NCBI GenBank assembly: GCA_963785565.1
Contig: CAWAVV010000011.1
Location: 184,263-248,262, forward strand
Reading direction: 5' to 3'
DNA from: an uncultured Alphaproteobacteria bacterium
GTDB taxonomy: Bacteria > Pseudomonadota > Alphaproteobacteria > ATCC43930 > CGMCC-115725
DNA length: 64,000 bases
Shown: positions 1 to 54,414 of the stretch, in pieces
How positions within the stretch are numbered: the stretch's first letter is position 1
How the letters are laid out: each line of letters opens with the position of its first letter
Notes under the pieces: model-generated
The model's database searches: none
Told to the model about the DNA's origin: nothing
What the model saw: only the letters and a program-made list of their open reading frames with translations
Translations under genes and position numbers: made by a program

Positions 1-105
1 CGGGTGCTGGGCGCGCACCCCCGCCGCGACCACCTCGTCATAGGTCGCGCGCATTCCGGCCAGCTTGAGCTGGCCCATCAGCGCGATGATTTCATGCCGC
101 TCCAC
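1..105 (-). CDS. istB: IS21 helper ATPase IstB, N-terminal part only (cut by the window edge)
   Basis: The frame from GTG 105-103 reads VERHEIIALMGQLKLAGMRATYDEVVAAGVRAQHP, which contains the IstB LKLxGM motif. It overlaps the istA 3' end, as is typical of IS21. The start codon choice is uncertain. Confidence 0.6.
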   Translation of the reverse strand, partial: MERHEIIALMGQLKLAGMRATYDEVVAAGVRAQHP

Positions 106-954
106 GCCAGACTTCCTCGGCCGGCGGCGGGTGGCGCAGCCGGTCATAGCGGGCGCAGTCGGCCGCCGGCTCGATCGCCAGCGTCAGCGCCGCCGGAGTC
201 GCCACCGGCCGAGGCGGGTCGGCATCGCGCTGTCGCGCCAGGATGTTGAGCACGACGTCGCGGCCGAACAGCTTGGCCGACAGCGCCTCGGCACAGGCCG
301 CCTCGACCGCATCGAGCCCGGCCACGGAAAAAGACAGCTTCGACCGCCGTCGTCATATGGTCGTAAATGCCGCGCCGGCACATGCCGCCAGACAGGCGGA
401 ACGCGTGGTCGTGCGCGTCGAACACCATCTCCTGGGTCTCGCGCGGGTAGGCCCGCACCAGAAACATCCGGCTATGGCACAGCCGGATGTGAGCAACCTT
501 GACCGTCGTCGTCACGCCGCCGAGCACCACGACCTCGTGCGACCAGTCGAATTGTTAGGCCTCGCCCGGCGCAAACCACAGCGGGATGAACACCGGACCC
601 TGCTGCGAGCGCGCACGGCGCCAATCCCGCACATGGCGCTGCACACTGTCATAGGCGCCCGCGCCCGGGTAGCCCTCGGCGCGCAGCAACTCGAACAGCC
701 GCCGCGCTGTCAGCCGCTCGCGCGCCGGCCGCCGGCTGTTCGCATGGAGCAATCCGTCAAGCCCGCGCCACAAACGGTCCAAGCCGGGGCTGCGGCTGCA
801 CTCGGCGCTCGTAGCGAAACTAGGTCGACGATTCGCGGATCGCGTTGCGCACCGTTCTCCGTGAGATCCGCAACTCGCGCACGATCTGGCGGATCGGCTT
901 CTTATCAACCCAAAACGCCCGCCTAATCCGGCCGATCGTTTCCACCGTCACCAT
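92..954 (-). pseudogene. istA: IS21 transposase IstA, inactivated
   Basis: The ATG is at 954-952. There is an in-frame TAG at 820-822 (…NAIRESST*FRYERRVQPQPRLG). A frameshift near 765 separates FVARA from LDGLLHAN. The DDE core (…TAVEAVFF) joins almost directly to the C-terminal GLDAVEAAC region near 325-335. A normal IstA is about 400-500 aa, so roughly 250 aa appear to be deleted. Confidence 0.8.
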
Positions 955-1070
955 CCCCGGCCACGCTCCCCTCAACAACCAAGGGGAGCATTCAATGATT
1001 CGCGGGGTGGGTCCCTATTCGATGCTGATCACCCCAATATCCGGGTCACTCTTCCACGCTGAGTTCCAGA

Positions 1071-1324
1071 CTACGGCGCCGCAGGCGCAGAATTGGGACC
1101 CCAGAATCAAAGCCCTGGTGCCGTTCCCACCGGTTTTGGAGAATATGAGCAACCAATTGGCACGCTCGCGCGTCGAGCATGTCTTAGCCGTCCAGAAATT
1201 CCAGCTGGGTCTAATCGTGCGCACCGTCGGCATGGTGCGCGCCCGCGTCAAAATCGGTCTGGCCAATCTCGCCTACAACTTCCGCCGTCAGGCCTGGCTC
1301 GACGGGCAAGCCGCACCGACGTGA
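1071..1324 (+). pseudogene. IS5-family transposase, C-terminal fragment
   Basis: The tail of ORF 845..1324 reads NQLARSRVEHVLAVQKFQLGLIVRTVGMVRARVKIGLANLAYNFRR. This fits the conserved RVEHxF…VR..GL.R…LAYN..R C-terminus of IS5-group transposases. No DDE or N-terminal part precedes it. The IS21 remnant abuts it. Confidence 0.6.
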
Positions 1325-2001
1325 TCCCGGAGCTTGTGCGGAAACGGCGGCGACCCGAGCAAACCAGACCAGCCACGCGACCCGGCCGTCCAAGCGAAGA
1401 AATTCCCGTTCTCACCCCGCACCGTCCTCGCCCGCCGCTCGAGACGCGGCAATTCGGGTGATGCGGCGGCGCCGTTCCCCGTCCACGTTGCCACGCATTG
1501 CGCCATTGCTTGTTCCGCGTGGCCGATGATCTGCGTGTCCGCGAGTGTGCTGAGCGGATGGTCGATCACGACCGGCACCAGATCGGGCATGCCGAGCGCG
1601 TCACGCTGCATGTTTGCCTCATGAAGAAACTCCGTGGTGGCCACCACGGCAGTAGGCCGTCCCAGCGTCTCAAGAGAAATGCCATCATGCGTACAGCACG
1701 ATGTACATGACCCTCAATCGCCGATCGCGGTCAGGACAATATCGTTGTTGGCGGCGATCTCCGCGATCAGCGCGGGATCGGCATATTTCGAGAAGCTCTC
1801 TTTCTTGTAGTAATTGGTCGCGGCCAAGCCGTGTTCATCCTCAAGGAGAGCGGCTGTCGTCCGTAGGAGCCGCCTCGCGTTCCATTTGGTGTTATCGAGG
1901 ATGCCGAGCCGGAGTCCCTGAAGCGTGACTACTCGCGGGGCCAGCGGCACCTGCTCGACATCGATCCTCCCCCGCGGATCGAAGACAGTCTCGTAATCCA
2001 T
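1288..2001 (-). CDS. Candidate UGSC-family (seleno)protein with an in-frame TGA at 1716-1714; the 3' end may be disrupted by the IS5 fragment
   Basis: ORFs 1714..2109 and 1288..1647 share one frame. They are separated only by TGA plus 22 sense codons. Read-through gives …IVLTAIGD-U-GSCTSCCTHDGISLETLGRPTAVVATTEFLHEANMQRDALGMPDLVPVVIDHPL…. The likely start is MDYETVF at 2001, with AAGGAG 8 nt upstream. The last ~60 codons (…NGAAASPELPRLERR…) look like non-native GC-rich read-through into the IS region. Confidence 0.55.
1685..1710 (-). promoter_or_regulatory. SECIS-like hairpin starting 3 nt after the in-frame UGA
   Basis: The mRNA reads UGA GGG UCAUG UACA UCGUGC UGUA CG CAUGA. UCAUG pairs with CAUGA and UACA pairs with UGUA, giving 9 bp with a 2-nt bulge and a 6-nt G/U-containing apical loop. 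I folded this by eye only. Confidence 0.4.
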
Positions 2002-2067
2002 CGTGTTGCTCTCCTTCACAGGTAACAGGTTCCGTCGACGCAGACCGGACCAGAAGGGCCGCTGCCC

Positions 2068-2304
2068 TTGCCCAGTTCTGGTGGACGCGCTCGCTGTCAT
2101 TGGCGCCACCTTCCTCGGTGGTGCCGTTCAACTACCTGTCGCTGGTATGGACAACGATTCCTCGGCTTCGCGGTGCGGGGGGACGTGCCGACCCCGGGCC
2201 TGCTGGTCGGTTCCGCGATCGTTGTCGCCTCGGGCCTTTACATCCTGTGGCGCGAGACCTTACGCCGCCGACGCCCGGCGGTCCCAGCGCCGCAGCGGGC
2301 GTAA
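2068..2304 (+). pseudogene. DMT/EamA-family transporter, 3' fragment with a frameshift
   Basis: Two frames together read …VVPFNYLSLVWTTI | LGFAVRGDVPTPGLLVGSAIVVASGLYILWRE…. This is the typical last two TM helices of EamA transporters. No upstream part of the gene is present. Confidence 0.55.
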
Positions 2305-2456: not shown

Positions 2457-2699
2457 CTAGTGGCGCGCCGGCCCTCGGTCCTCGCCAGCGCGAACACGTC
2501 GCGCGAAGACCACCGCTTCGTCCGACCATCTCGCGAAGACGCTGGCCGCGACCTCCGCGGCCGCCGCAATGGCCTGTTCCAGGTTTCCCGGGACAAGCCG
2601 GGCGCGCAGCTCGAACCGTTCATGGCCAAAGCGAAACACAGCCACGGGCTCGGCGCCGAATTGGACGGATGCGAGTTCAAAAAGCATCTCGTCGGGCAT
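2457..2699 (-). CDS. Hypothetical small protein (80 aa)
   Basis: This is an internal ATG of ORF 2457..3089 (MPDEMLFELASVQFGAEPVAVFRFGHERFELRARLVPG…), preceded by AAGGAG. I recognise no family. Confidence 0.3.
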   Translation of the reverse strand: MPDEMLFELASVQFGAEPVAVFRFGHERFELRARLVPGNLEQAIAAAAEVAASVFARWSDEAVVFARRVRAGEDRGPARH

Positions 2700-2859
2700 G
2701 GGCGGTCTCCTTTCGTGCGCAGCGTTGTGGTTGGGACGATATGGCCGCGTGGCCCGGCTGTCATGCCAGTCAACCGGGCGCAGATGGGTTCCTGCGGCAC
2801 GTTCTTGCAGCCCGCCCGTTCGGGAGCGAGAATGCCCGCAAGTAGGGAGGGATCGAGCG

Positions 2860-5019
2860 ATGAGGATCAAGAACCCATTGTTCTCAGCGATGATGGCCAT
2901 TGGTATCGCGCTGGTTGTGGGTCTCGCTCCGATGTCGCTCAGCGCGCAGCAAAAAACCGACCCGGCGATCCGCATCGGCAACAATGATGTCGGCGGCGTG
3001 GTTAGGAGCGCGACCGGGCCGGAGGCGGGCGTCTGGGTGATTGCCGAAACCACCGGGCTGCCGACTGCGTTCGCCAAAATCGTCGTCACCGACGATCATG
3101 GACGTTATGTCATTCCGGACCTCCCGAAGGCCAATTACGATCTCTGGGTGCGCGGCTACGGGCTCATCGACTCGCCGAGAGTTGTAACAAAGCCAGGGAA
3201 GATCATCGATTTGTCGGCCGTGCCAGCGCCGAATGCGGCGGCCGGCGCGCAATATTATCCGGCGATCTACTGGTATTCGATGCTCACCATCCCGGATCAG
3301 GGCCAGTTTTCCGGCCCGAAGCGCGACGAGAAGATGCCAGAGGATATAACCGCCCGGTGGCAATGGCTAAATACGATAAAGACCACCGGCTGCATCGCCT
3401 GCCACGGGATCGGCACTCTTGGGACGCGAACGATCCCCGCCGCGCTCGGACATTTCGCGTCTTCGGCGGAGGCATGGGCACGGCGCATCCAATCTGGTCA
3501 GGCCGAGACCAATATGGTCAATACGATCAGCCGGCTCGACCCGCAGCTCGCGTTTCAGTATTTCGGCGACTGGACCGACAGAATCGCCAAAGGCGAACTG
3601 CCGTTTGCGACGCCGCCCCGGCCGCAGGGCATCGAGCGCAATGTCGTGTTGACCCTGTGGGACTGGAGCCGCCCCACGGCCTACCTCCACGACCTCACTC
3701 CGACAGACCGGCGCAATCCGACGGTCAATGCCAATGGTAAGCTTTACGGCACGGCCGAGGAGAGCAGCGATAACCTGCCTGTGCTCGATCCAGCGCATAA
3801 TTCGGTTAGCGAGATCCACCATCCGGTGCGCGATCCAAACACGCCGACCACGAAGACGGCGCCCTTGGAGGCCTCACCCTATTGGGGTGCGGAACCGATC
3901 TGGGACAGCGAGAGCGTCACGCACAACCCGATGATGGACGAGAGAGGCCGGGTCTGGTTCACCGCCAGGATCCGCTCCGCAGCAAACCCAGCTTTCTGCA
4001 AGCAGGGATCGAGCCATCCCTCGGCACAGGTTTTTCCGCTGCGGGCATCCGGCCGCCAGCTGTCGATGTATGATCCGGCGACGGGAAAGTTCACGCTCAT
4101 CAACACCTGCTTTCCGACGCACCATCTGAACTTCGCCTACGATGCCAATAATACGCTGTGGACCAGCGCCGGCGGTCCGCAGACGCCCGTCATCGGCTGG
4201 CTCAATAGAAAAATGTTCGAGGAAACCGGGGACGAGCAGAAATCACAGGGGTGGACGCCGTTCATCGTCGACACCGTCGGCAATGGCAAGCGCACCGATT
4301 ATGTCGAGCCCGACCAGCCGGTCGATCCGACCAAGGACAAACGCGTTGTCGTCGGCCTGTACTCGGTCTCGGTGAACCCGGTCGATGGGACGATCTGGGG
4401 CACCTCGCTGGGATACCCCGGTTATGTGGTTCGCGTGAACCCGGGACCTGATCCGACCCACACGGCGCTCACCGAGATCTACGAGCCGCCATTGCCTGGC
4501 TACGGGCCCCGCGGCGGCGACATCGACAGCAAGGGCGTTTTCTGGGCGTCGCTGGCGAGTGGGCATCTGGCGCGCTTCGACCGGAGCAAATGCAAGGTGT
4601 TGAATGGCCCGACTGCGACCGGCAAGCATTGCCCCGAGGGCTGGACCCTCTACCCTTTCGCGGGTCCGCAGTTCAAGAACATCAGTGACTCTGGCAGCGC
4701 CGAATCGAGTTATTACGTCTGGGTCGATCAGCACGACACATTAGGTCTCGGCAAGGACGTGCCAATCGCCACGGGCAACCTCAACAGCGCATTACTCGCT
4801 CTCGTCGACGGTAAGTTCGTGGTCCTCCGGGTCCCCTATGTAAACGACTATTTCACGAAGGGGATGGATGGGCGCATCGACGACCCCAACGCTGGCTGGA
4901 AGGGCAGGGCATTGTGGACGACGTATGCGACCCGGGCGATGTTCCACCTCGAAACCGGCAAAGGCACCTTCCCCAAGGTTGTCCGCTTTCAGCTCCGCCC
5001 CGACCCGCTCGCCGATTAG
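2860..5019 (+). CDS. Secreted protein with a carboxypeptidase-regulatory-like N-domain, one CxxCH haem-c motif and a probable beta-propeller
   Basis: The start MRIKNPLFSAMMAIGIALVVGLAPMSLSAQQ is a signal peptide with GGGAGGGA upstream. Further motifs are GVWVIAETTGLPTAFAKIVVTDDHGRYVIPDLPKANYDLWVRGYG (CarboxypepD_reg-like) and TTGCIACHG (haem-c). The C-terminal part is long and repeat-like. Confidence 0.7.
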   Translation: MRIKNPLFSAMMAIGIALVVGLAPMSLSAQQKTDPAIRIGNNDVGGVVRSATGPEAGVWVIAETTGLPTAFAKIVVTDDHGRYVIPDLPKANYDLWVRGYGLIDSPRVVTKPGKIIDLSAVPAPNAAAGAQYYPAIYWYSMLTIPDQGQFSGPKRDEKMPEDITARWQWLNTIKTTGCIACHGIGTLGTRTIPAALGHFASSAEAWARRIQSGQAETNMVNTISRLDPQLAFQYFGDWTDRIAKGELPFATPPRPQGIERNVVLTLWDWSRPTAYLHDLTPTDRRNPTVNANGKLYGTAEESSDNLPVLDPAHNSVSEIHHPVRDPNTPTTKTAPLEASPYWGAEPIWDSESVTHNPMMDERGRVWFTARIRSAANPAFCKQGSSHPSAQVFPLRASGRQLSMYDPATGKFTLINTCFPTHHLNFAYDANNTLWTSAGGPQTPVIGWLNRKMFEETGDEQKSQGWTPFIVDTVGNGKRTDYVEPDQPVDPTKDKRVVVGLYSVSVNPVDGTIWGTSLGYPGYVVRVNPGPDPTHTALTEIYEPPLPGYGPRGGDIDSKGVFWASLASGHLARFDRSKCKVLNGPTATGKHCPEGWTLYPFAGPQFKNISDSGSAESSYYVWVDQHDTLGLGKDVPIATGNLNSALLALVDGKFVVLRVPYVNDYFTKGMDGRIDDPNAGWKGRALWTTYATRAMFHLETGKGTFPKVVRFQLRPDPLAD

Positions 5020-5257: not shown

Positions 5258-5875
5258 TTACGCCGAGAGCACGTCGTCGATCTCCTTCGCCCGCAACGCG
5301 GCCGGCCGCGCGCTGAGCCGCTGACAATACCGTTCGAAAGCCAGCCGCTTCTCGATCACGCCGAACTGCATGCCAAAGCCAATTCCGGAGCCGAGATAGG
5401 TATCGGCGGCCGTGAAACTGTCGCCGACCACATATTCGGCACGCGACACCGCCGCTTCGAGTGTGTCGACGACCGCTTCGAAGCGTCCATAACCGGCCAT
5501 CCTTTCCCTTCGGGCGGCACGACAAAGCCCATGGCCCTGTTAGTCCATGCGGCTTCGAGCGGGCAGGCGCCGAAGAAGAGCCAGCGATAATTGGGGCCGC
5601 GCCGACGATCACCTGGTGGCGGGGTCAGGCGAGCCTCCGGAAACGCGTCGGCGAGATAAGCGCAGATCGCTGCCGCTTCGGTCACCACGGTGTCGCCGTG
5701 TCGTATCGCCGGCACCTTCCCCATGGGAATTGACGGCGAGGTAAGCCGGCGCCTTCATCGTGGTGCCGTATTCGAGCAGCTCCGTTCGATAGGGCTGGCC
5801 GATTTCCTCCAGCATCCAGCGCACGATCCGGCCGCGCGACATCGGATGGGTGTAAAAAACGAGTTCGTCCGCCAT
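5258..5875 (-). pseudogene. Glutathione S-transferase family gene with two frameshifts
   Basis: Three frames must be joined to read the protein. They are MADELVFYTHPMSRGRIVRWMLEEIGQPYRTELLEYGTTMKAPAYLAVN, then (P)MGKVPAIRHGDTVVTEAAAICAYLADAFPEARL…LFFGACPLEAAWTNRAMGFVVPPEGK, then MAGYGRFEAVVDTLEAAVSRAEYVVGDSFTAADTYLGSGIGFGMQFGVIEKR…. The lesions are near 5724 (an apparent extra T in aatTccc) and near 5500. Confidence 0.8.
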
Positions 5876-9181: not shown

Positions 9182-9809
9182 TCATGCCGCCGCGTGCGGG
9201 ATAACGGTTCCAGGTGAACGATGCTTTTGGCTACGCTCCCAGAGCTTGAAGCCGAGCAATAGGCCACCAATGGCCAAGGCCACCGGGAGTCCATCGCCGA
9301 TCGGGGGAGCTGGTACGGCGTTGACAACGCCGGTGTTGAAATTGGTGTTGCCGGGGGCACAGATAGGCTGGTTCATTCCCCCGCAAGGACCGCCCGCATC
9401 TGCAACGAAAACGTTACCCAAATTATTCGGGGCGGTCAGGTCAGCAATTGTCGCATTGGCAACGGTGAAGACGAGCGGGGTGCTGATTGTATCGGACAAC
9501 CCATTGCCGCACGTGGTGCCTGTCGCATTGAATTTGAAGGCTTGAAAGTCTCCCGCCCCCGTCCTCGCGAACGTACACGGGCTGTTCAGGGCTACGTCGA
9601 AATCGACGCTCGTCCCACCTTGAGTCAGCGACAGTGCCAAAGGTTGTTCCCGGGAGACCACACCCGCCGGTACATTCGTCGCTGGTGAAATCAAAGACCG
9701 TGGGCTGAGTTGGAATTGCCAGAGCAGGTATCGCCGCCCACAGGCTGGCGGCGATCAGCGCCGCGACGCCGGCGAAGATTGGAAGGGATTTGAATTTGAA
9801 CATCCGCAT
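9182..9809 (-). pseudogene. Secreted protein with a C-terminal sorting-signal-like anchor; frameshifted between the signal peptide and the body
   Basis: The N-terminal frame reads M(R)MFKFKSLPIFAGVAALIAASLWAAIPALA…FDFTSDECTGGCG. The body is in another frame: …LSLTQGGTSVDFDVALNSPCTF…VVNAVPAPPIGDGLPVALAIGGLLLGFKLWERSQKHR. The frame change lies somewhere in about 9600-9690. Confidence 0.6.
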
Positions 9810-10035: not shown

Positions 10036-10686
10036 ATGGCGCAAAAAGGTCGCGGGATTTTCATGGTGTACGTTGATATCGACGCCCGGCACGTGCAGGA
10101 ATTCAACGAGTGGTATAACAAGGAACATCTACCGGAATTGCTGTCGGTGCCCGGCATTCTCTCAGCGGCTCGCTACGAGGCGGTCAAGGGTGGCCCGCAA
10201 TACCTGGCATGCTATGAACTGGAAAGCGTGGCGGTGATGCAGACGCCGGCGTTTAAAAACCGGCCGCGGACGCCGTGGGGACAGAAAGTCTCGCCGTCCG
10301 TGATCGGGAAGAATTTGACACGCATTGTCGGGGAACAGATTTACCCGGAGGGCATGGAAATGCCGGAGCGTGGCATGGCGCCGGTGTTGCAGATTGGCCG
10401 CATGTCCGTCCCCGCCGAGGTCGATGCGGAGTGGAACGCCTGGTACAGTGGGGAATATGTGCCAGGCTACCGCAAGGTGCCGGGAGTGATCTACGCCCGC
10501 CGCTATCGGGTTCTCGAGGGTACCAGCGGCTACAGCACGGTCTACGAATTTGCCAGTACGGCCGTGCCCGAAAGCCCGGAGTGGAAGGAGCAACAGCAAC
10601 ATTCCTCGCCCAATTCGCCGCGCATGCGGCAGGCCATGACGCATGCACCGGGTTCTGCCGGGGTGTACGTACGGGTGAACCCCTGA
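10036..10686 (+). CDS. Hypothetical protein with two tandem EthD/dimeric alpha-beta-barrel-like domains
   Basis: The start MAQKGRGIFMVYVD has GAGGAGA upstream. Both halves carry the same motif: EFNEWYNKEHLPELLSVPGILSAARYE and EWNAWYSGEYVPGYRKVPGVIYARRYR. Confidence 0.6.
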   Translation: MAQKGRGIFMVYVDIDARHVQEFNEWYNKEHLPELLSVPGILSAARYEAVKGGPQYLACYELESVAVMQTPAFKNRPRTPWGQKVSPSVIGKNLTRIVGEQIYPEGMEMPERGMAPVLQIGRMSVPAEVDAEWNAWYSGEYVPGYRKVPGVIYARRYRVLEGTSGYSTVYEFASTAVPESPEWKEQQQHSSPNSPRMRQAMTHAPGSAGVYVRVNP

Positions 10687-10726
10687 AGTCCAGGGTGCGC
10701 TAGCAGGCTGCTGAAAAACCCGAGTG

Positions 10727-10849
10727 TCATTCCGGGACGGCCTGTCAGGGCCGGGCCCGGAACCCATACACACAGGCCAAGCCATTGATTTCTCTTGTCC
10801 GTGTTCTTGGGTTCCAGGCTCGCGGGCGATGCCCGCGCCCCGGAATGAC
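10727..10849. repeat. REP/MITE-like palindromic element
   Basis: The terminal inverted repeat is GTCATTCCGGG (10727-10737) and CCCGGAATGAC (10839-10849). This class of element is common in alphaproteobacterial intergenic regions. Confidence 0.6.
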
Positions 10850-11107
10850 GAGGTTCATGCATTTTTCCTGTGCCAGCTGTCTTGGAGCCGCGTGCGCATT
10901 CGCCAGAAAGGTACGGTTTCACGCGGCGAGCAAACGGTGCGGCAAAGCGCACCCAGGGCCGTCAAGTCTCATATAGCGTGTTTCGCCGGCGAGCTGACCG
11001 CGGTGTGGGTTCCCGCCGGCCCCAAGCGCGCCCGGCAATACGCTGAACAGCGGTACGGCACATTTGCAGATCAAGCTTGAACCGTACCGCTAGCCTCCTG
11101 CCGGCTC

Positions 11108-11341
11108 TTACGACCACCAACCAACGATGTTGCTGACGCTGGAAACCGCGCTAACCGCCGTAGCCCGGATCGGATACATACCCGTTGGCAAGCTGAGCAC
11201 AACCGCGTCGCCGCCAGGCGTCGTGATCGTCAGCGATCCGCCGGCGTTGACGAACGACAACCATTGGGTCGCAGTCGGGAAGGTTCCGTTCGATGCCCCC
11301 AGCGCAAAGGCACGATTTGGTGCACTCGAAGGTGAAGCCAT
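11108..11341 (-). CDS. Small protein (77 aa), possibly related to phage/GTA spike-base proteins
   Basis: GAGGAAA lies 5 nt upstream. The pattern FVNAGGSLTITTPGGDAVVLSLPTGMYPIRATAVSAVSSVSNIVGWW resembles, from memory, the yvG.aG.l.v…G..vtf..v.aG.ilPir..rV.atgTtA..IvaL pattern. The gene lies in a locally lower-G+C patch. Confidence 0.35.
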   Translation of the reverse strand: MASPSSAPNRAFALGASNGTFPTATQWLSFVNAGGSLTITTPGGDAVVLSLPTGMYPIRATAVSAVSSVSNIVGWWS

Positions 11342-11523
11342 TCTATTTCCTCAAGCAATGACACCAGGGGTCGCCGCGTTAACGGCAGGCTCTCTCGTGT
11401 TCTGCGATATTGCCAGTATGTTCTGAGCATGGTGGCAATTTTGTAGCGACTGTATCGTCAGCATCGCCGTGTGGGGGGCGATCGGCGATACACTGGGAAC
11501 CGTCGCGACGATCACCCTTGGGC

Positions 11524-11814
11524 TCAATCGAAGGTGGTGCTTCCTTCGCGGATCATCCGGCCGACGGCCGACAAAAGATTGGCACGTTCGCCGGGGTCAT
11601 TCACCGGCAATCGTCGCCACTCCCTGCCATCCCGAAAATCTGCAAAGAGACCGGTGCGGTCCTCATGAAAATGCAGAAAGGCCCTGCCTCTGACATAAAA
11701 TATCCCGGGCCGCTTCTCGACGAGGTCGGTCCGGGCCCTGAGGTTCATCAGCAAATCGTTTAGCGCGTCCAATGCGCGTGCGCCAGCGTGTTTCATCGCC
11801 CGTTCCGCAATCAA
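11524..11814 (-). CDS. Hypothetical protein (96 aa)
   Basis: The ORF reads …LVEKRPGIFYVRGRAFLHFHEDRTGLFADFRDGREWRRLPV…. I cannot make a firm family assignment. Confidence 0.4.
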   Translation of the reverse strand: MIAERAMKHAGARALDALNDLLMNLRARTDLVEKRPGIFYVRGRAFLHFHEDRTGLFADFRDGREWRRLPVNDPGERANLLSAVGRMIREGSTTFD

Positions 11815-11886
11815 TCAGCGGCCTCGATCCGAGCGCGCCCAAACTTGTAGTGTAGCACTGATCGGCAGCGGCAAGTGAGGCCCGAG

Positions 11887-13071
11887 ATGAGTGTGGAAGG
11901 CGGCTATAGCGGCCTGCGTGTGCTGGATTTGGGTCAGGGGGTGGCCGCACCCTATTGCGCGATGCTGCTCGCAATGCACGGGGCTGAGGTCGTTAAGCTC
12001 GAACCGGTCGCTGGCGACTGGTCGCGCGGGCTCGGAACGCAATATGGCGACCACACCACGATGTCGGCGCATTACAATCGCGGCAAGCGCAGCCTTGCGC
12101 TCGACCTCAGATCCCCGGCGGCGCGGGAAATCGCGTTGGCGCTTGCAGACCGCGCCGTCATCGTTATCGAGGGGTTTCGGCCGGGTGTGGCGGATCGGCT
12201 CGGCCTCGCCTACGACGCGCTCGCCGCGCGAAATCAGCGCCTCTTATACCTGTCCGTCAGCGGCTTCGGCCCAGACGGCCTTTATGCGCAGTTGCCGTGC
12301 ACCGACTCGGTGGCGCAGGCCTTTTCCGGGCTGATGTCGGTCAATCTCGGCAACGATGGCGCGCCGCACCGGGTCGGGGCGATCATCGTCGACACGTTGA
12401 CCGGGCTCTACGCGGCGCAGGCGCTCGGCGTCGCGCTCTATGCGCGCGAGCGCAGCGGTCGCGGCCGGCGGATCGAGGTCAGTCTGACGCAATGCGCAGC
12501 GGCGATCCTTGGCCACAAGCTCGCCGAGCACATCCCCGAAGACGGGGTCCCTAGGGCATTGAACGTTCCGACCGGCGCCTATCACCCGCAGGACGGGTGG
12601 ATCCTGATCGCCCTCGTCAGGGAGCAGCAGCTCGCCCGTCTCGTAGGCGCGCTCGGCCGCCCCAATCTAGCCACCGATCCGCGCTTCGCCGATTTCGCCA
12701 TGCGCGCCCGTCACGCCGGGGCACTCAGCGAGATCATCGTTGCTACCTTCCCGACCGACACGACCGCCGGCAGGCTCGCGCGGCTGCGCGCCGCCGATAT
12801 CCTCGCCGACCGGGTCAACGGCTTTGACGACTGGCTCGCCGACCCGCACGTCGTGGCCACCGGCGGGGCGATTGCCGTCGACCAATCCGGCATGGGACGG
12901 TTCCGGACCCCGCGAACCCCAGGTATTTCGGCGGAGGCCGATGCCGGGTTGGCGCCGGCGCCTGGGATCGGCGAGCACGGGCGGGCAATCCTCGCCGAAC
13001 TCGGCATCGAGCCTGCCGCCGTCGAGCGACTTGCCGCCGAAGGCGTGCTGCGCGTGCCGGAAGCGTCATGA
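11887..13071 (+). CDS. CaiB/BaiF family (class III) CoA-transferase
   Basis: MSVEGGYSGLRVLDLGQGVAAPYCAMLLAMHGAEVVKLEP…IEGFRPGVADRLGL. The ATG at 11887 is 6 nt after GTGAGG. Confidence 0.85.
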   Translation: MSVEGGYSGLRVLDLGQGVAAPYCAMLLAMHGAEVVKLEPVAGDWSRGLGTQYGDHTTMSAHYNRGKRSLALDLRSPAAREIALALADRAVIVIEGFRPGVADRLGLAYDALAARNQRLLYLSVSGFGPDGLYAQLPCTDSVAQAFSGLMSVNLGNDGAPHRVGAIIVDTLTGLYAAQALGVALYARERSGRGRRIEVSLTQCAAAILGHKLAEHIPEDGVPRALNVPTGAYHPQDGWILIALVREQQLARLVGALGRPNLATDPRFADFAMRARHAGALSEIIVATFPTDTTAGRLARLRAADILADRVNGFDDWLADPHVVATGGAIAVDQSGMGRFRTPRTPGISAEADAGLAPAPGIGEHGRAILAELGIEPAAVERLAAEGVLRVPEAS

Positions 13072-13565
13072 GCGAGGGGTTCGATCGTCGCCGGCACCGC
13101 CTCGGCGAAAATCGCTGGTTCGAGGACCTCACGATCGGCGAGCGGTTCGCAATCCCAAGCCGCACCATGACCGAGGCGCATTTCTCTGCGTTTCAGACGG
13201 TCTCGGCTGATAATCACCCGATCCATTACGATGTCGAATATTGCCGCGAGCGCGGCCACCCGGCGCCGCTTGCACATGGCTTTCAAATTCTCTGCTTCAC
13301 CGCCGCCGGCGCCGGCGACTTTGCCCATGCCATAGGCGGCGCGCTTTTGGGCTTTATCGAGCAATCCGCGAAATTTCTGAAGCCGGTCTATGCCGGCGAC
13401 ACGCTCTACCCGGTGCTGGAGATCGCGGCGCTGACCCCGCAGCAAACCACCGGGATCGTCTCGGTCGCGGTGACCGTGCACAACCAGAAGGGCGAGCTGG
13501 TGCTGACCGGCGAGCAAAAATACCTGCTGCGCAAGCGAAACCCGGATCTCAACCCCGCTCGATGA
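13068..13565 (+). CDS. MaoC-like (hotdog) dehydratase
   Basis: An ATGA overlap links it to the CoA-transferase. [31 protein letters not shown] is a MaoC motif. Confidence 0.8.
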
Positions 13566-14586
13566 TTGCGGCGAGCAGATCGGCGGCGCGGCGGCATTGC
13601 TCGCGGCTCACGTCGAGATGGGTGACGGCGCGCACCGTGCGCGCGGCAAAGGCCGAAACCAGCACCCCCAGCTCCTGCGCGCGCGCCACGATTGTCGCCG
13701 CGTCAGGCGCGCTTTTTGCCATATGGAAGATCACGATATTGCTCTGCACGGTGGCGAGATCGAGTTCGACGCCGCGTAAACCATCGAGCCGTTCCGCTAG
13801 GAGTCGCGCATTCGCGTGGTCCTCGGCGAGCCGGTCGATATTGTGGTCTAGCGCCCACAGCCCGGCGGCGGCGAGAATTCCCGCCTGCCGCATGGCCCCG
13901 CCGAACATGCGCCGCGCACGGTGGGCGCGGGCGATCTCTGCCCGCCTTCCGGCAAGCACGCTGCCGACCGGGCAGCCGAGCCCCTTCGAGAGGGCCACCG
14001 AGATCAGATCGAACGGCTCCGCCAGCTCGGCCAGATCCCGGCCCGACGCCGCGGCGGCATTGAACAGCCGCGCACCGTCGAGATAGCTTGCCATCCCCAG
14101 TTCGCGCGCGGTCGCGCAAACCGGGACTGCATCCTGCTGGGGAAAAACCACCCCGCCGCCGCGATTATGGGTGTTCTCGACCGCGACCAACGTCGTCGGC
14201 GGAAAGACAACATGTCCCGGCGGCTTATAGGCGGCGCGCAGGTCGGCCGCGGTAAAGAGGCCGCCGCTGCCGACCGGAGCGAACTGCACGCCCGAATTGG
14301 CCGCGCCGGCGCCCGATTCGTGCCAGACGATATGCGCCCCGTGCCCCAGCACGACCTCGTCGCCAGGCCGGGTCAGCAGTTTGAGACCGATCTGGTTCGC
14401 CATCGTCCCGCTTGGCACGAACAGCGCTGCTTCCTTGCCGAGCAGTTCGGCAATGCGCTCCTGCAATCGGTTGACCGACGGGTCCTCGCCATACTGGTCG
14501 TCGCCGACCGGTGCGGTCGCCATCGCCCGCCGCATATCGGCAGACGGAAGGGTTACCGTATCCGAACGAAGATCGATGCGGGTCAT
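13549..14586 (-). CDS. ltaE: Low-specificity L-threonine aldolase
   Basis: [65 protein letters not shown]. Confidence 0.8.
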
Positions 14587-15479
14587 CGAGTACCTCCCGC
14601 CGTCAAGTCCATAAGCTCGAGTGCCGCGCGTCCGAGGAGACTATACGGATTGCCGAGGGTTTCGGGTAATTCGAAATGGTTGTAGTGCTCGCCAACCAGG
14701 AGCCGCACCTGCTTGCCGGCGGCTTCGACCGCCGCCGCGAATTCCCGGTTCTGGCGCTGAAATTCGGGGGTCTCGCAGGTGCCGTAGGCGACGATCACCG
14801 GGGCCAGCAATCGGTCGAGATGACGAATTGGACTGAGCTCGGCGACCGTCACGTCGTCGAACGCGACGTAGCGGCTGCGTGCGGAAAGCCGCACCGGCTC
14901 GAGGTCGTACATGCCGCTGATGCAGATCCCGCCTTTGATGATGTTTGCCGGCAGACCGAATTGATGCTGCCAGTCGGTTGTTAGCGCGACCGCGGCGAGA
15001 TGTCCGCCCGAGGATTGGCCGCCGACATAAAGCCGATTCGGGTCACCGCCGATGCGAGCGATGTTTTCGTAGACCCAGGCGACGGCGCGGCGGACCTGAT
15101 CGGCGAGCACCATCAAGCTGCCGCCGACATCCTGCACCCAGGCGAAGTCGGGCACGATGTAATGCGCCCCGGCGGCGAGGAACATTTCGGCCGGCACCGT
15201 GAAATCCCTCGAGCGTCCGCCGCGCCAGGCGCCGCCATGGATAAAGACAAAGACCGGCGCCGCGGTGCGCCCGGTGCGGTAGATATCGAGCCACTCGATC
15301 TCGGCCGAACCATAGGCGATGCGCTCGGGCTCGCCGATGCGCCCTCGCGCCATCCCGCTGTCGCCGATGCGGCGTTCGATCAGCTGCTCGCGATTCGGCG
15401 CATAGGCGGCCTGGTCATAGGCGGCGTCGAGTGCTGCCTGGTCGTAGTTGAGGAACACCGGCGGGCCTTTTTCGAGCAT
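14583..15479 (-). CDS. Alpha/beta hydrolase (esterase/arylformamidase-like)
   Basis: It has the HGG motif [10 protein letters not shown] and the nucleophile elbow [10 protein letters not shown]. It overlaps ltaE by 4 nt. Confidence 0.75.
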
Positions 15480-15538
15480 CGGTCCCCCGCTATTTGTGCT
15501 GTTCGCCGCGATCCGCTGCGGGAAGAGGAGAGTGAGAA

Positions 15539-16177
15539 ATGAAGCTCTACACCTATTACCGCTCGCAAGCGAGTTTTCGCGTGCGCATCGCGTTGAATTT
15601 AAAGGGGATCGCGCGAGAGGATATCTTCCTGCATCTTGAGCGGGGAGATCAGTTCACGGCCAAATACCGCGCACTCAATCCGCAGATGATGGTGCCGACC
15701 CTGATCGACAACGGGGTCGAGCTGTTCCAGTCGCTGGCCATTCTCGAATATCTGGACGAAAAGTACCCGCAGCCGCCATTGCTGCCGGCCGAGCCGGAGG
15801 CGCGCGCCTGGGTGCGCGGGCTAGCCCTGATCAATGTCGCCGATTCGCACCCGCTGATCGTGCCGCGGGTCCGCCACTATCTCACCGATGTGCTGAAACT
15901 CAGCGACGCGCAGCGGCTCGGATGGATCCAGCATTGGCTGGGCCTGGGCCTCGAGGCGATCGAAGCGCGGCTCGCCCGGCACTCCGAGAGCGGCGATTTC
16001 TGCCACGGCGAGCGGCCGTCGATCGCCGATATCTGCCTGGTGACCCAGGTAACCCCGGCCAAGACTTTCGACTGCCCGCTCGACTCCTATCCGCGGATAA
16101 TGCGAATTTACGACACCTGCATGGCGATACCCGCTTTTTCCGACGCTCATCCGACAAGGCAGCCCGATGCCGAATGA
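15539..16177 (+). CDS. maiA: Maleylacetoacetate isomerase (zeta-class GST)
   Basis: MKLYTYYRSQASFRVRIALNLKGI…YRALNPQMMVPTLIDNG…QSLAILEYLDEKYP. Confidence 0.85.
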   Translation: MKLYTYYRSQASFRVRIALNLKGIAREDIFLHLERGDQFTAKYRALNPQMMVPTLIDNGVELFQSLAILEYLDEKYPQPPLLPAEPEARAWVRGLALINVADSHPLIVPRVRHYLTDVLKLSDAQRLGWIQHWLGLGLEAIEARLARHSESGDFCHGERPSIADICLVTQVTPAKTFDCPLDSYPRIMRIYDTCMAIPAFSDAHPTRQPDAE

Positions 16178-16274
16178 GGCCGGCCCGCTACCGCTTGCGC
16201 GCGAAGGCTGGACACGGCATTAACGATTTGGCACAGTTGCTGCCGAAACTTTTGTTTTCACACGGCGCACTCAA

Positions 16275-16595
16275 ATGAAGTTTTGGGTCTTGACCGCCGC
16301 GACCCTCATCATCAGCGCCGCTTCGGCGGTGAGTCCCGTCGGCGCTGCATCCTGCGGCTCAAAAAGGCACGGCAATTGCCTTAAACTCCCCGCGACCGTC
16401 AATTTCAGCTCGGTTCCGGACATCTCCAAACAGATCGTCGCCGAAGAGCCGGCCGCGGTGAAGCCGAATACCCGCACGGTGGAAGCGCCGCCGATAACCA
16501 CCTACACGGGTCCGACGGCCGGGTACAGCTCGATGGCCCGGGTGCCGACGGTCGGCTACTACTGGTCGCTGGAACCTCAGGCCGATACCCATTGA
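16275..16595 (+). CDS. Hypothetical secreted protein
   Basis: The signal peptide is MKFWVLTAATLIISAASAVSPVGA. I recognise no family. Confidence 0.45.
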   Translation: MKFWVLTAATLIISAASAVSPVGAASCGSKRHGNCLKLPATVNFSSVPDISKQIVAEEPAAVKPNTRTVEAPPITTYTGPTAGYSSMARVPTVGYYWSLEPQADTH

Positions 16596-16676
16596 CCCTT
16601 ATCCGGCCGCAAGATTAGACGCCGACGCACGACTTGGGGCCCGGGATCGCGCGCCGAGACGGGCCGGAGCGCGGCG

Positions 16677-17321
16677 ATGACCATCCTGGCGATGGCGCCC
16701 TCACCTCGCCGCCCGGCCGAACGCCGGGCCGATCTCTTCATCCTGGTCTGCAGCCTGCTCCTCGGCACGGCCGGCGCGATCGCTCTTATGATCGCAGCAT
16801 TTGCTCGGCGCGACACCCGGCTCCTCATCGGCGTCGCCATCTATGCCGCGGGGCTGTTGGCGATGCTCGGGAGTTCGCTCGCCTACCACGCTGCTGCCGG
16901 ATCGCCGCGCCGTGGGCTGCTGCGCCGTTTCGACCACGCCGCGATCTTCGCGATGATCGCCGGCACCGTCACACCGTTTGCGCTCAGGCGCGGCGACGCG
17001 GTCTGGGGATCCGCCGCGACTGCGGCAGTCTGGGCTGCCGCAGCGATCGGGATCGTCATCAAGCTGCGCTTGCCGACCGACGCCAGGCAATCGGCAATCC
17101 CTTATCTGATCCTCGGCTGGGTCAGCGCTGCCGCGCTCCTGCCGTCGGTCTCGCCCGCTACCGGACTGCAGCTCGCCGCCGGCGGCGTCCTATATACAGT
17201 CGGGGTCACATTCTATCTTTGGCGTCGACTGCCGTTTCACAGCGCGATCTGGCACGCCTTTGTCCTGGCCGGGGCAGCCTGCCATTACTTAGCGATAGCA
17301 GACGGCGTCGTTAAGGCATGA
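16677..17321 (+). CDS. Hemolysin III / PAQR family membrane protein
   Basis: It is a multi-TM protein with SSLAYHAA…RRFDHAAIFAMIAGTVTPF…HAFVLAGAACHY. Confidence 0.8.
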   Translation: MTILAMAPSPRRPAERRADLFILVCSLLLGTAGAIALMIAAFARRDTRLLIGVAIYAAGLLAMLGSSLAYHAAAGSPRRGLLRRFDHAAIFAMIAGTVTPFALRRGDAVWGSAATAAVWAAAAIGIVIKLRLPTDARQSAIPYLILGWVSAAALLPSVSPATGLQLAAGGVLYTVGVTFYLWRRLPFHSAIWHAFVLAGAACHYLAIADGVVKA

Positions 17322-17350
17322 GACCGATGCTTGCAGCCGACCGCGACCGA

Positions 17351-18202
17351 TCAGTCGAACGCAAGCAGCAGCGGCGCCGCCCGCGCGCGGATTCCGTCGG
17401 GCAATGGCGCCGGCCGCCGCGCATCGAGGTCGAGCTGAACCCCGAACTGGCCGAGCCGCGCGAACTCCGCGCCACTACGCGGATCGGACATGCGATGGAG
17501 AAAGCGGATCGAAGAGCTGCCGAGATGGGCGATCCCGGTCTCGACCAGATACGGCTCCCCCAGCCTCGGCGCCTCGATGATCCGCAGGGCGAGCTCAAAA
17601 GTCGAGAAGCCGCGGCGCTGCGTTTTTATATACTCGGTGGTCATACCAATCGCCGCAGCGGTCTGCAGCAACGCATCGGTAAACCGGTGAACAAAGGCGG
17701 CGAGGGAGAAACGCCCGAACTCGTCGAGATCGGCCGGCTTGACCCGGCCGCGCGCGCTTGGAACGGCGCCGGCCATCTTCCGCGGTTCGGGGCGCGCCTC
17801 CGTCGCCGGCCCTTCCCAAGTCGCCAGCCGACGCTTGATCACATCGCGCCGTTCGGCCGTCAGCAGAGCGGGCGGCGCGTCCCACACCTCCTCGATCCAT
17901 GTCACTCGGTCGCCGTTCGCCGAATTGACGATGCGGTGCCCGAGTCGCAAGGCCTTGTCGAGCCCGATCGCAGCGCTCTCGACATGAAAGCTGTCGCCGG
18001 CCCGCAGCTCGCGAGTAAAGCGGAGGTCGAACCGGCGAGCAAAACCGCCGCTGCGTAGACCGTCGGCGACGCCGACGGTTTCGGCAATGCTCGCGGCGGC
18101 CTGGTCAATTCGATCGAAATAACAGGCAACCGTAAAATGTTCGGTGACATCGCACTCCCAAGGGGCCACGGTGCCGCGATAGGTCTCGGTCCACTCTGTC
18201 AT
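17351..18202 (-). CDS. Acyl-CoA thioesterase, tandem hotdog domains
   Basis: YRGTVAPWECDVTEHFTVACYFDRIDQAA and a second repeat are present. Total length is 283 aa. Confidence 0.7.
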   Translation of the reverse strand: MTEWTETYRGTVAPWECDVTEHFTVACYFDRIDQAAASIAETVGVADGLRSGGFARRFDLRFTRELRAGDSFHVESAAIGLDKALRLGHRIVNSANGDRVTWIEEVWDAPPALLTAERRDVIKRRLATWEGPATEARPEPRKMAGAVPSARGRVKPADLDEFGRFSLAAFVHRFTDALLQTAAAIGMTTEYIKTQRRGFSTFELALRIIEAPRLGEPYLVETGIAHLGSSSIRFLHRMSDPRSGAEFARLGQFGVQLDLDARRPAPLPDGIRARAAPLLLAFD

Positions 18203-18236
18203 TTAGGCTCCGATATTTTAGCCGTGCCGTCCGTAC

Positions 18237-18599
18237 TTACGAGATCCGCCAGTTTCCGTCGGGCAGCAGGCAGCTATTCAGCATGTAGTGCTCGGGTGAG
18301 GTCGACATCTTTCGCGTCGCCAACGTGTATCCGATGGATTCGCAAGGCCGGCCATTCGCGCTGTACTTCTTGATCAGCTTTATGCTTCCGTAATTGCCCG
18401 ATTCGGAATTGCTCCATGAAGCGGTCGTGCCGACGGCTTTGCCGTGGACCTGCTCGTCGACAACGCGGTGAATGATGGCGAGGTCGTTTTTGGTCAGCTC
18501 GATGTTCGATTCGAGACCGAGTCCCAAAAACTGCGCCTCGGCCGGCAGCCACGCAATCAGCGCGACCATCAAAACCATCACCTTCAACGAATTCGGCAT
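18237..18599 (-). CDS. Small periplasmic/outer-membrane surface-antigen-like protein
   Basis: The start is MPNSLKVMVLMVALIAWLPAEAQ (signal peptide). …SWSNSESGNYGSIKLIKKYSANGRPCESIGY resembles 17-kDa surface-antigen family proteins. Confidence 0.55.
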   Translation of the reverse strand: MPNSLKVMVLMVALIAWLPAEAQFLGLGLESNIELTKNDLAIIHRVVDEQVHGKAVGTTASWSNSESGNYGSIKLIKKYSANGRPCESIGYTLATRKMSTSPEHYMLNSCLLPDGNWRIS

Positions 18600-18781
18600 T
18601 CCTGTTCTCCACCGCGACCAAGCTGGATTTTCAGCAGAAAGCTGCCGTCGCGCGTTGATCAAGGTCAACAAAAAACCCAAAAGCCAAGACATCGACCTGC
18701 TCGAAAGGCGGCTGGCATGGCTATTTGCCGCAACCCGGATATTTATGGCGAACCTCTCGCCACCCGTAGACGGCAGGGCTG

Positions 18782-19618
18782 ATGGAGCTGGGTATAGTGT
18801 TTGGACACAATAGCGGCGCCGGCAGGCGGGCCTACCGCAACACGGTCGGGCGCGTGGCGGCCGCGGCTGTGCTCGGCTTTCTGCTCGGCTGCGGCACTGG
18901 CTGTGCCGGTCGGTCGGGCGGCCCGCCGAGCGCGACCGATACCGACACGGTCAACGACCCCGGTGAGCCGGTCAATCGAGCGATCTTCAAGGCCAATCTC
19001 GCCGCCGATCATGCGGTCATGCGCCCGGTAGCGCAGGCCTATGTCGACCACGTGCCACAAGCTGTTCGCCAAGGCGTCGGCAACGTCGTGCAGAACCTCA
19101 AGGAGCCAGCGATTGCGGTCAACGACCTGCTGCAGGGACATATTGCGCAGGCATGGCAATCGATGCGGCGGCTGGCGGTCAACACTACCGTCGGCGCCGG
19201 CGGCATCGTCGATGTCGCAAAGAAGTGGGGGCTGGCGCCGCATAGCGCCGATTTCGGCCAGACGCTCGCCGTCTGGGGGGTCGGCGAGGGGCCCTTTATC
19301 GAATTGCCGCTGCTCGGCCCGTCAAATCCGCGCGATGCGCTGGGTACCGCGGTCGACCTGGCGCTGAACCCGCTGACCTTCGTCGGCGGGGCCCCCGCAA
19401 CCTATGCGAGCGTCGCCGCTACGGGCGCCAATGTGGTCGACAGCCGCGCGCAACACCTCAAGGATCTCGACGAATTGGAGCGCAACTCGCTCGATTATTA
19501 TGCCGAGCTGCGCAGCGTCTACCGGCAGCACCGGGACGCCGAGATCGCCGCGGCAAAAGCGCCGCAAAAGCCCCAACAGGGTCGCGTCGACATCACCTTC
19601 CCCGATGCCAAGCCGTGA
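18782..19618 (+). CDS. mlaA: MlaA/VacJ family lipoprotein
   Basis: The lipobox region is LGFLLGCGTGC. DPGEPVNRAIFKANLAADHAVMRPVAQAYVDHVPQAVRQGVGNVVQNLKEP is MlaA-like. Confidence 0.85.
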   Translation: MELGIVFGHNSGAGRRAYRNTVGRVAAAAVLGFLLGCGTGCAGRSGGPPSATDTDTVNDPGEPVNRAIFKANLAADHAVMRPVAQAYVDHVPQAVRQGVGNVVQNLKEPAIAVNDLLQGHIAQAWQSMRRLAVNTTVGAGGIVDVAKKWGLAPHSADFGQTLAVWGVGEGPFIELPLLGPSNPRDALGTAVDLALNPLTFVGGAPATYASVAATGANVVDSRAQHLKDLDELERNSLDYYAELRSVYRQHRDAEIAAAKAPQKPQQGRVDITFPDAKP

Positions 19619-19664
19619 CCCTCCTCGGCTGGCGCGTGCCGGAGACGGCGAAGCTTCGGCGCAA

Positions 19665-21134: not shown

Positions 21135-21164
21135 GGGACGACGGGATCTGGACCAAAATCAATG

Positions 21165-52704: not shown

Positions 52705-54414
<1,710 letters not shown>

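Follow-up and report, generated by a model that had tools for sequence, protein, structure and literature searches.

A probably orphaned gene for a predicted UGSC selenoprotein amid insertion-sequence debris in an alphaproteobacterial genome

Near the start of a 64,000-nucleotide stretch of DNA from an uncultured alphaproteobacterium (GenBank assembly GCA_963785565.1, contig CAWAVV010000011.1, positions 184,263 to 248,262; the whole stretch is hereafter called the window), a TGA codon lies inside a minus-strand gene which, by comparison with its relatives, belongs to the UGSC family of (seleno)proteins and would specify selenocysteine (Sec) at that codon. Both the identity of the gene as a genuine Sec-type member of this family and the nature of its recoding signal can be regarded as essentially settled from sequence comparison. 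Taken as a whole, the locus is probably best explained as such a gene that is now orphaned on a fragment of ~605 bp (~1462-2068), lodged between debris of two insertion sequences (IS) of the IS5 and IS21 families on one side and a transporter pseudogene on the other. The UGSC family, its dimorphism between Sec and cysteine (Cys), and the general model of the bacterial Sec insertion sequence (SECIS) element are already known from the literature, and the family is included in the NCBI annotation rules. It corresponds to the “UGSC-containing protein” of Zhang & Gladyshev (PLoS Genet 2008; PMC2398784), and reviews from 2022 and 2026, the latter citing the NCBIfam model NF041046, list it as a predicted prokaryotic selenoprotein that is functionally uncharacterised. 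What is specific to this locus is its local genome history, namely the fusion to an IS5 element, the loss of a partner gene, and the deletion of the syntenic UGSC copy.

A conserved TGA codon within a single UGSC gene

In a mechanically generated list of open reading frames (ORFs), 1714..2109 and 1288..1647 share one frame of the minus strand, and only the TGA at 1716-1714 and 22 sense codons lie between them. A preliminary description, made from the letters of the window alone, had reported this arrangement at the coordinates where we find it, together with a read-through peptide (...LTAIGD-U-GSCTSCCTHDG...) whose U-G-S-C motif is reproduced by translation. The read-through frame comprises 237 sense codons, Sec counted, and its native UGSC part extends from 2001 to ~1462, i.e., over residues 1 to ~180. 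The AAGGAG that had been pointed out ahead of the start codon is present at 2016-2011, 9 nt before the ATG at 2001, and equivalent purine-rich sites are also present in relatives.

Two further proposals of the preliminary description, that the two ORFs form one gene and that the product belongs to a family named UGSC (seleno)protein, proved correct. With Cys substituted for the in-frame stop, the protein passes the cut-offs of both NCBIfam NF041046 (“UGSC family (seleno)protein”, an equivalog model; 143.3 bits against a cut-off of 125, profile positions 2-147 of 147) and Pfam PF24696 (“UGSC”; 188.5 bits against a cut-off of 25, profile positions 1-171 of 172 on residues 5-174). A single family hidden Markov model (HMM) thus runs unbroken across both ORFs, and the conserved residues of the family are retained in the window protein.

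A search of a large protein collection returned 682 relatives of the read-through protein, and the best 120 of these, nearly all 172-205 aa long, span just ~72-75% of the 237-residue query, which was the first sign that its last ~55 residues are foreign. Among 19 full-length matches aligned, 18 carry Cys at the UGA column, and the remaining one, which is also the closest (P0001, a metagenome protein), displays a “W” that is the gene caller's rendering of a TGA on its contig (L001). Relatives were also collected from genomes, taking one genome per species and retaining the best 80 loci, which come mostly from Stellaceae and unclassified alphaproteobacterial metagenome-assembled genomes (MAGs) and show 63-79% protein identity. 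TGA occupies the Sec column in every one of them, so that the window codon is no private nonsense mutation; with L001 added, the count is 81 of the 81 closest relatives, a signal that greatly exceeds chance. The closest relative of the window copy is L004, at 80.6% protein identity. The UGA column had been singled out beforehand as the place to look in homologues, and more distant ones do carry Cys there: Cys-type homologues (e.g., P0002, P0010, P0018, P0022, P0058, and P0071) share the same domain at 53-61% identity, are 180-199 aa long, have the same ~370-aa partner gene directly upstream, and use TGC or TGT where the Sec type has TGA. Hence, in the lineage of this gene, the UGA at 1716-1714 would be decoded as Sec, with a hairpin 12 nt downstream as the likely signal. 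When the window was scanned for further in-frame TGA read-through candidates, only two antisense artefacts emerged, from a filter insensitive enough to miss the UGSC gene as well.

A 17-nt SECIS core fixed by frozen synonymous sites

For the hairpin, the alignment comprised 82 sequences and covered positions -12 to +62 relative to the TGA; the 76 distinct ones among them were used for folding. The 76-nt region around the TGA folds at -28.9 kcal/mol (z = -2.56 against shuffles), and the hairpin at 1701-1685 reaches a mean pair probability of 0.98 in partition functions computed for each of the 76 distinct sequences. Its six core pairs form in 100% of sequences, the sole variants being changes from G-U to A-U or G-C, and in the window two added pairs, A1702-U1684 and C1703-G1683, lengthen it to 8 bp (1703-1683).

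The constraint on this core is visible at synonymous sites. Third codon positions +17, +20, +23, +26, and +29 are invariant or nearly so across the 82 sequences, whereas +5, +8, +11, and +14 vary freely and +32 varies again. Codon entropy is ~0 bits in the five consecutive codons TCG TGC TGT ACG CAT, against a median of 0.95 bits over the 89 gene columns with a conserved amino acid; only nine of these 89 columns are at <=0.2 bits, and five of the nine are the consecutive SECIS codons. The non-preferred TGT and CAT are used in 82 and 81 of the 82 sequences, respectively, although the other His and Cys codons of the gene mostly use C. Genes of the Cys type served as a control: in six of them the same stretch reads TCN TGC TGC RTS CGS GAY, with variable synonymous sites and no such hairpin. 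The T-H residues of Sec-type proteins appear to be a by-product of the RNA requirement, because the Cys-type genes, which do not have the hairpin, encode [IV]-R at these positions.

The bacterial SECIS model of bSECISearch describes a loop of 3-9 nt on a stem of 4-16 bp with an energy of <= -7.5 kcal/mol (PMC13188914, Fig. 2A), a G at the first or second loop position, as a rule with G or U after it, and a UGA-to-loop distance of 16-37 nt (PMC13188914). The window hairpin falls within this consensus model on all four counts, with the 5-nt loop UGUAC on a stem of 6 conserved bp (8 bp in the window), a G at loop position 2 followed by U in all 82 sequences, 18 nt between UGA and loop (offsets +3 to +20), and an energy of -11.2 kcal/mol for the window 23-mer. 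The consensus 23-mer comes to -12.6 kcal/mol, and the bare 17-mer to just -5.9 kcal/mol. In Escherichia coli fdhF, a 17-nt upper stem-loop located 11 nt after the UGA reportedly suffices, and the constrained core in the window is likewise 17 nt long and starts 12 nt after the UGA. In sequence, however, the window hairpin is unrelated to the E. coli fdhF and fdnG elements, and no bulged U is evident in it.

A SECIS-type hairpin had been anticipated directly after the UGA, and both its location and its 3′ arm stand. Its register does not: the 5′ arm is TCGTGC at 1701-1696 and not TCATGTACA at 1710-1702, the two alternative arms existing because the peptide repeats Ser-Cys (G-SC-T-SC-C). The register proposed in the preliminary description (UCAUG-UACA/UGUA-(CG)-CAUGA, 1710-1685) can be drawn, but we rejected it as a SECIS element. 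In 66 of 76 sequences, one pair of this register is lost; the register reaches a pair probability of 0.002, has its 5′ arm on freely varying synonymous sites, and departs from the bSECISearch model twice, with a loop, UCGUGC, that does not have the required G, and a spacing of 12 nt. As for the conservation or covariation in orthologues that had been named as bearing on the hairpin, conservation is evident in the five frozen synonymous sites and covariation is not seen, the pairs being invariant. Support for the hairpin thus comes from conservation, thermodynamics, and fit to the model rather than from compensatory changes, because the core never varies.

Around this core, the minimum free energy structure includes a possible extended lower stem that takes in the UGA (Table 1). 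It is weaker and only partly conserved: slid controls have 32-49% of cells paired and this stem 86%, and a single pair occurs as GC in 22 sequences and as CG in 21 but is unpaired in 32. Rfam searches of 1200-2200 at permissive thresholds gave chance-level matches only and no SECIS family. By analogy with the established bacterial mechanism, the hairpin would recruit SelB-GTP-Sec-tRNA(Sec) to a ribosome paused at the UGA. For work on the UGSC family, the useful outcome is that frozen synonymous sites pin the SECIS element to a 17-nt core.

Predicted fold of the UGSC protein

In an AlphaFold2 model (mean predicted local distance difference test score 86.8, predicted template modelling score 0.83), the Cys homologue P0003 is a five-stranded alpha/beta sandwich, with strand 93-99 and helix 106-117 on either side of the U/C-G-S-C motif. 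The product of the window gene would thus carry its U-G-S-C redox motif where a beta-strand ends, just ahead of the next helix, and the placement of a U-x-x-C motif just before a helix suggests, by analogy, a redox role. Matches to folds in the PDB are weak (template modelling scores of 0.41-0.49) and comprise flavodoxins, flavin mononucleotide-dependent azoreductases, and lumazine synthase; a sequence search of the PDB with the UGSC profile gave no meaningful match. A thioredoxin-like fold had been supposed for UGSC in 2008 (PMC2398784), and the model indicates a flavodoxin-like rather than a thioredoxin-like fold class. This predicted fold, together with a near-universal upstream partner gene, is a by-product of the analysis that applies to the UGSC family at large.

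Fusion of the 3′ end to an IS5-family element

Relatives of the gene stop 2-17 residues past the last conserved Trp (W173), whereas the frame in the window continues for 64 residues beyond it. The window copy hence departs from a typical UGSC protein, which is ~180-199 aa long and has its stop within that interval. Residues ~181-237 read SPELPRLERRAR...SSQA, and no homologue has such a tail. They are encoded antisense to the right end of an IS5-family element and its last transposase codons (Table 1), the transposase C-terminus occupying 1163-1324 with its stop at 1322-1324.

To place the end of the element, 80 related metagenome copies were retrieved and 11 aligned in detail. These 11 copies end in ...GGTAATTCGAGGTGTCC, ~135-150 nt past the transposase stop, and the window equivalent of this right-end inverted repeat, GCGGCAATTCGGGTGATGC, is found at 1446-1464, 140 nt past the stop at 1324. 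The end of the element thus falls at ~1460-1464 (+/-4 nt), where it abuts the gene near codon 180-181, ~7 codons after the last conserved Trp. A placement at 1427, derived from an IS5 repeat, was rejected upon alignment with the 11 copies. The element resembles IS5-family relatives from soil metagenomes and alphaproteobacterial plasmids in its transposase C-terminus (up to 79% protein identity) and in its right-end repeat ~140 nt past the stop; in the window, just the last ~300 bp survive, without the left end and most of the transposase. Judging from the alignment, the conserved UGSC domain is complete, and at most a short, naturally variable tip was lost along with the native stop. The impression given in the preliminary description that the last ~60 codons are non-native and run into an IS5 fragment is therefore borne out, with ~57 codons antisense to the IS5 right end, but its suggestion of a 3′-truncated gene overstated the damage, as the conserved domain is complete.

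The IS5 fragment in turn borders a decayed IS21-family element, the boundary of which lies somewhere between 954 and 1163. A tblastn search with an intact 521-aa IstA aligned aa 1-61 to 954-772 (frame -1), aa 61-207 to 770-330 (frame -2), and aa 435-517 to 319-53 (frame -3). The istA gene thus has a frameshift near 771 and a deletion of IstA residues 208-434 near 325.

Loss of the partner gene on the 5′ side

Nucleotide homology between the window and the related loci extends from ~1475 to ~2068 and ends inside the last codons of a second gene, of which only a 16-codon remnant is left (Table 1). In the related loci, this gene encodes a partner protein of ~370 aa and immediately precedes UGSC in 66 of 80 Sec-type and in all six Cys-type loci (L164-L169). 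The association is an empirical feature outside the curated family definition, and it is missing from the window copy. Partner proteins of Sec-type loci (L002-L081; e.g., L008 8731-9882) end in ...FIPGWGHM..PV....C[VI]DGTCYL followed by a stop, and hence have a C-terminal C-x-D-G-x-C motif. Sequence searches found no Pfam, NCBIfam, or PDB relative of the partner, which, from its recurrent association with UGSC, looks like one half of an uncharacterised two-gene module. Compared with the named UGSC family, the window copy is alike in passing the HMM cut-offs over the whole domain and in having U-G-S-C at the Sec/Cys column. It differs in the 57-residue IS5-derived tail that replaces the native C-terminal tip and stop, in having no adjacent partner gene, and in being set in IS debris.

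Immediately beyond the partner remnant, the UGSC fragment abuts, at ~2069-2071, what is left of a DMT-family transporter gene in three frames, and the peptide stitched from these frames matches annotated DMT family transporters at 49-62% identity (tblastn). Further along, a glutathione S-transferase gene at 5258-5875 (minus strand) is likewise broken over three frames, with GST_N and GST_C in different ORFs. Among the related loci, the partner gene is frameshifted in two long-read MAGs, L006 (~9450-9500) and L165; the frameshifts probably stem from indel errors in assembly and not from gene decay, and they call for caution with frame-based arguments drawn from such MAGs. In L006, the genes right after UGSC (10540-11450, minus strand) look like YeeE/YedE-type halves, with a GGGCTSGHGVCG motif. 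An association with the transport of selenium or sulfur has been proposed for the YeeE/YedE-type family.

Remnant of a second UGSC copy

A second trace of UGSC lies further along the window, on the plus strand. The 31 nt at 11461-11491 read GCATCGCCGTGTGGGGGGCGATCGGCGATAC and translate to ...IAVWGGDRR; TAC now stands where the stop TAG used to be. The stretch 11461-21138 (~9.7 kb) is matched at 91-92% nucleotide identity by two MAG loci, L016 and L026, and the match starts inside the last ~10 codons of their own intact Sec-type UGSC gene. On this synteny, the remnant is what is left of the ancestral UGSC gene of the lineage, which has been deleted. The surviving copy (2001-1462) displays only 72% nucleotide identity to the L016 gene, with dS (synonymous divergence) of 1.41, compared with 92% identity for the adjacent block, and by this measure it is not the syntenic orthologue of the L016 UGSC gene. 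We also considered that an inversion had divided a single gene and carried its 3′ end to 11461. This was rejected because both pieces contain the ...QC-x-A-x-W-x-G region, which makes them parts of two different genes; the two pieces also differ in sequence and in their divergence from L016.

Table 1. Coordinates of the UGSC gene, its recoding signal, and the gene and IS remnants discussed in the text
Feature	Position	Strand	Remarks
UGSC gene, present frame	1288..2001	minus	ATG 2001, Sec-TGA 1716-1714, stop TGA 1290-1288
In-frame TGA, predicted Sec codon of the U-G-S-C motif	1714..1716	minus	TGA at the same column in 82/82 sequences, window included
SECIS core hairpin, UCGUGC-UGUAC-GCAUGA	1685..1701	minus	6 bp, 5-nt loop, G at loop position 2, starts 12 nt after UGA
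Possible extended lower stem including UGA	1662..1724	minus	Minimum free energy structure; weaker, partly conserved
Shine-Dalgarno-like AAGGAG	2011..2016	minus	9 nt before ATG 2001; overlaps stop codon of partner remnant
Partner-gene remnant, last 16 codons and stop	2016..2066	minus	GSGPSGPVCVDGTCYL and stop; rest of ~370-aa gene absent
Non-native C-terminal tail, residues ~181-237 and stop	1288..1461	minus	Antisense of IS5 right end and last transposase codons
IS5-family element, 3′ fragment	1163..1464	plus	blastn to annotated IS5 family transposases; 5′ part cut off by IS21
Decayed IS21-family element (istA)	1..1160	minus	Runs off left edge of window; matches annotated istA
DMT-family transporter gene, C-terminal fragment	2072..2300	plus	Three frames, without 5′ part; abuts UGSC fragment at ~2069-2071
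Remnant of second, ancestral UGSC gene, 31 nt	11461..11491	plus	Synteny with L016 and L026

Activity of the surviving copy

The junctions point to losses on both sides of the gene. With an IS5-family element abutting its 3′ side, the native stop is gone and the frame continues through 57 codons of antisense IS5 to a chance TGA. On the 5′ side, all but 16 codons of the partner gene are missing, and of the second, syntenic UGSC gene only 31 nt are left. We lean slightly towards a copy that was recently stranded and no longer works in a normal partner-UGSC module, as opposed to one that is still active. The flanking istA, DMT, and glutathione S-transferase genes are all broken, and the protein carries two unique substitutions, V121A and R161H, at positions conserved in 79 of 80 relatives. 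No promoter-like site was found nearer than ~740 nt upstream of the UGSC gene, and the promoter of the operon was presumably lost along with the partner gene.

Several observations weigh against this interpretation, or against one or another of its parts. With regard to a relic, the 180-codon frame, the ribosome-binding site, and the SECIS core are all intact, the dN/dS (ratio of nonsynonymous to synonymous divergence) is 0.15 in comparison with the nearest relatives, which is what intact orthologues show among themselves (0.09-0.22), and the neighbouring pseudogenes have frameshifts or deletions, whereas the UGSC gene has none. With regard to the IS5 fusion, the copies used to position the end of the element show no more than 67-79% identity in their transposase ends, the tip of the right repeat deviates (GATGC vs GTGTCC, with the terminal 3 nt differing), and the left repeat is missing. 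With regard to the recoding signal, the core pairs are invariant, with one varying pair and no compensatory excess over shuffles, and RNAalifold gave a different, weak structure on the same alignment (82 sequences, -8.8 kcal/mol, UGA paired with TCG), which we rejected on its probability of 0.005 against 0.98 for the hairpin at 1701-1685. Finally, there is no selA, selB, selD, or tRNA-Sec within the 64-kb window, as the preliminary description had observed: the tRNA scan detected no tRNA gene in the window, and SelA, SelB, and SelD are not among the products of its 30 largest ORFs. Chromosomal housekeeping genes, e.g., gltBD, hemN, and those for urease, are present in the window. In tRNA scans of 60 related loci, no tRNA-Sec was detected within 10 kb of UGSC either.

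The strongest competing explanation, less favoured but of real weight, is that the copy is still active. A promoter in 2020-2800, or read-through, would drive its transcription, with Sec inserted at the UGA to yield a 237-residue chimeric selenoprotein with an IS5-derived tail, and another locus of the genome may supply a partner for this protein. The intact frame, ribosome-binding site, and SECIS core and the dN/dS of intact orthologues all fit such a copy, as does the distribution of lesions, with about one disruptive lesion per ~300 nt in the flanking pseudogenes and none in the 540-nt UGSC part (rough Poisson P ~0.15). The appended tail may also be tolerated, given that natural tails after W173 vary from 2 to 17 residues. 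However, the partner gene and the native stop are lost, no promoter-like site lies nearby, two near-invariant residues carry unique substitutions, and the setting is one of decayed genes and IS debris; moreover, dN/dS measured over a long branch is blind to recent relaxation.

Two other explanations fare far worse. A mis-assembly or chimeric contig could lie behind the junctions (IS21/IS5/UGSC/DMT, and the 31-nt remnant at 11461), and in favour of this, homology breaks off abruptly at four points within 2.1 kb and the first 6 kb contain several frameshifted genes, but the junctions fall at identifiable IS ends and truncated genes, as real IS-driven rearrangement would leave them, and long intact ORFs extend across the other ~50 kb, which makes this very improbable. 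Still harder to credit is an ordinary pseudogene, i.e., a Cys-type UGSC gene with a TGC/TGT to TGA change or two unrelated in-frame ORFs beside a chance hairpin: one substitution turns TGY into TGA, and pseudogenes abound in the region, but TGA stands at the same column in all 81 nearest relatives, the window has the exact constrained 17-mer and the T-H residues of these relatives, both absent from Cys-type genes, and one family HMM covers both ORFs without a break.

For a Sec-type UGSC gene that is now orphaned, the annotation of the locus should replace the two ORFs by one UGSC family (seleno)protein gene with its Sec codon at 1716-1714, flagged for a C-terminus altered by IS5 insertion and for the absence of the usual partner gene. 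A bolder and rather doubtful proposal would be that the orphan copy is translated as a chimeric selenoprotein with a 57-residue IS5-encoded tail, and that UGSC proteins in general are flavodoxin-fold redox proteins that form an obligate pair with the ~370-aa partner. Predicted peptides of this tail include SPELPRLERR... and GENGNFFAWTAGSR. If the pair is indeed obligate, a genome in which one copy is deleted and the other stands without its partner would represent a natural loss-of-function case for the module.

Other features of the window

Beyond the pseudogenes that flank the UGSC fragment, an 816-aa ORF at 2569-5019 (plus strand) has a probable start, MRIKNPLF..., near 2860 and a signal-peptide-like N-terminus; it contains a CIACH motif of the CxxCH haem-c type and has no Pfam or NCBIfam match. 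Across the whole window at the gathering score, the sole Rfam match was 5_ureB_sRNA (100 bits) at 52857-53146 on the minus strand, inside the urease alpha-subunit gene, and is most likely due to conserved urease coding sequence, not to a small RNA. A palindromic element of ~124 nt occupies 10726-10849, with terminal inverted repeats GTCATTCCGGG...CCCGGAATGAC and a fold of -74 kcal/mol. It also occurs at unrelated positions in other loci (L066 10941-11063, L042 1028-1150, and L014 ~4483-4535), with 72-79% identity, and from this distribution it looks like a repeat of the REP/MITE (repetitive extragenic palindrome/miniature inverted-repeat transposable element) type.

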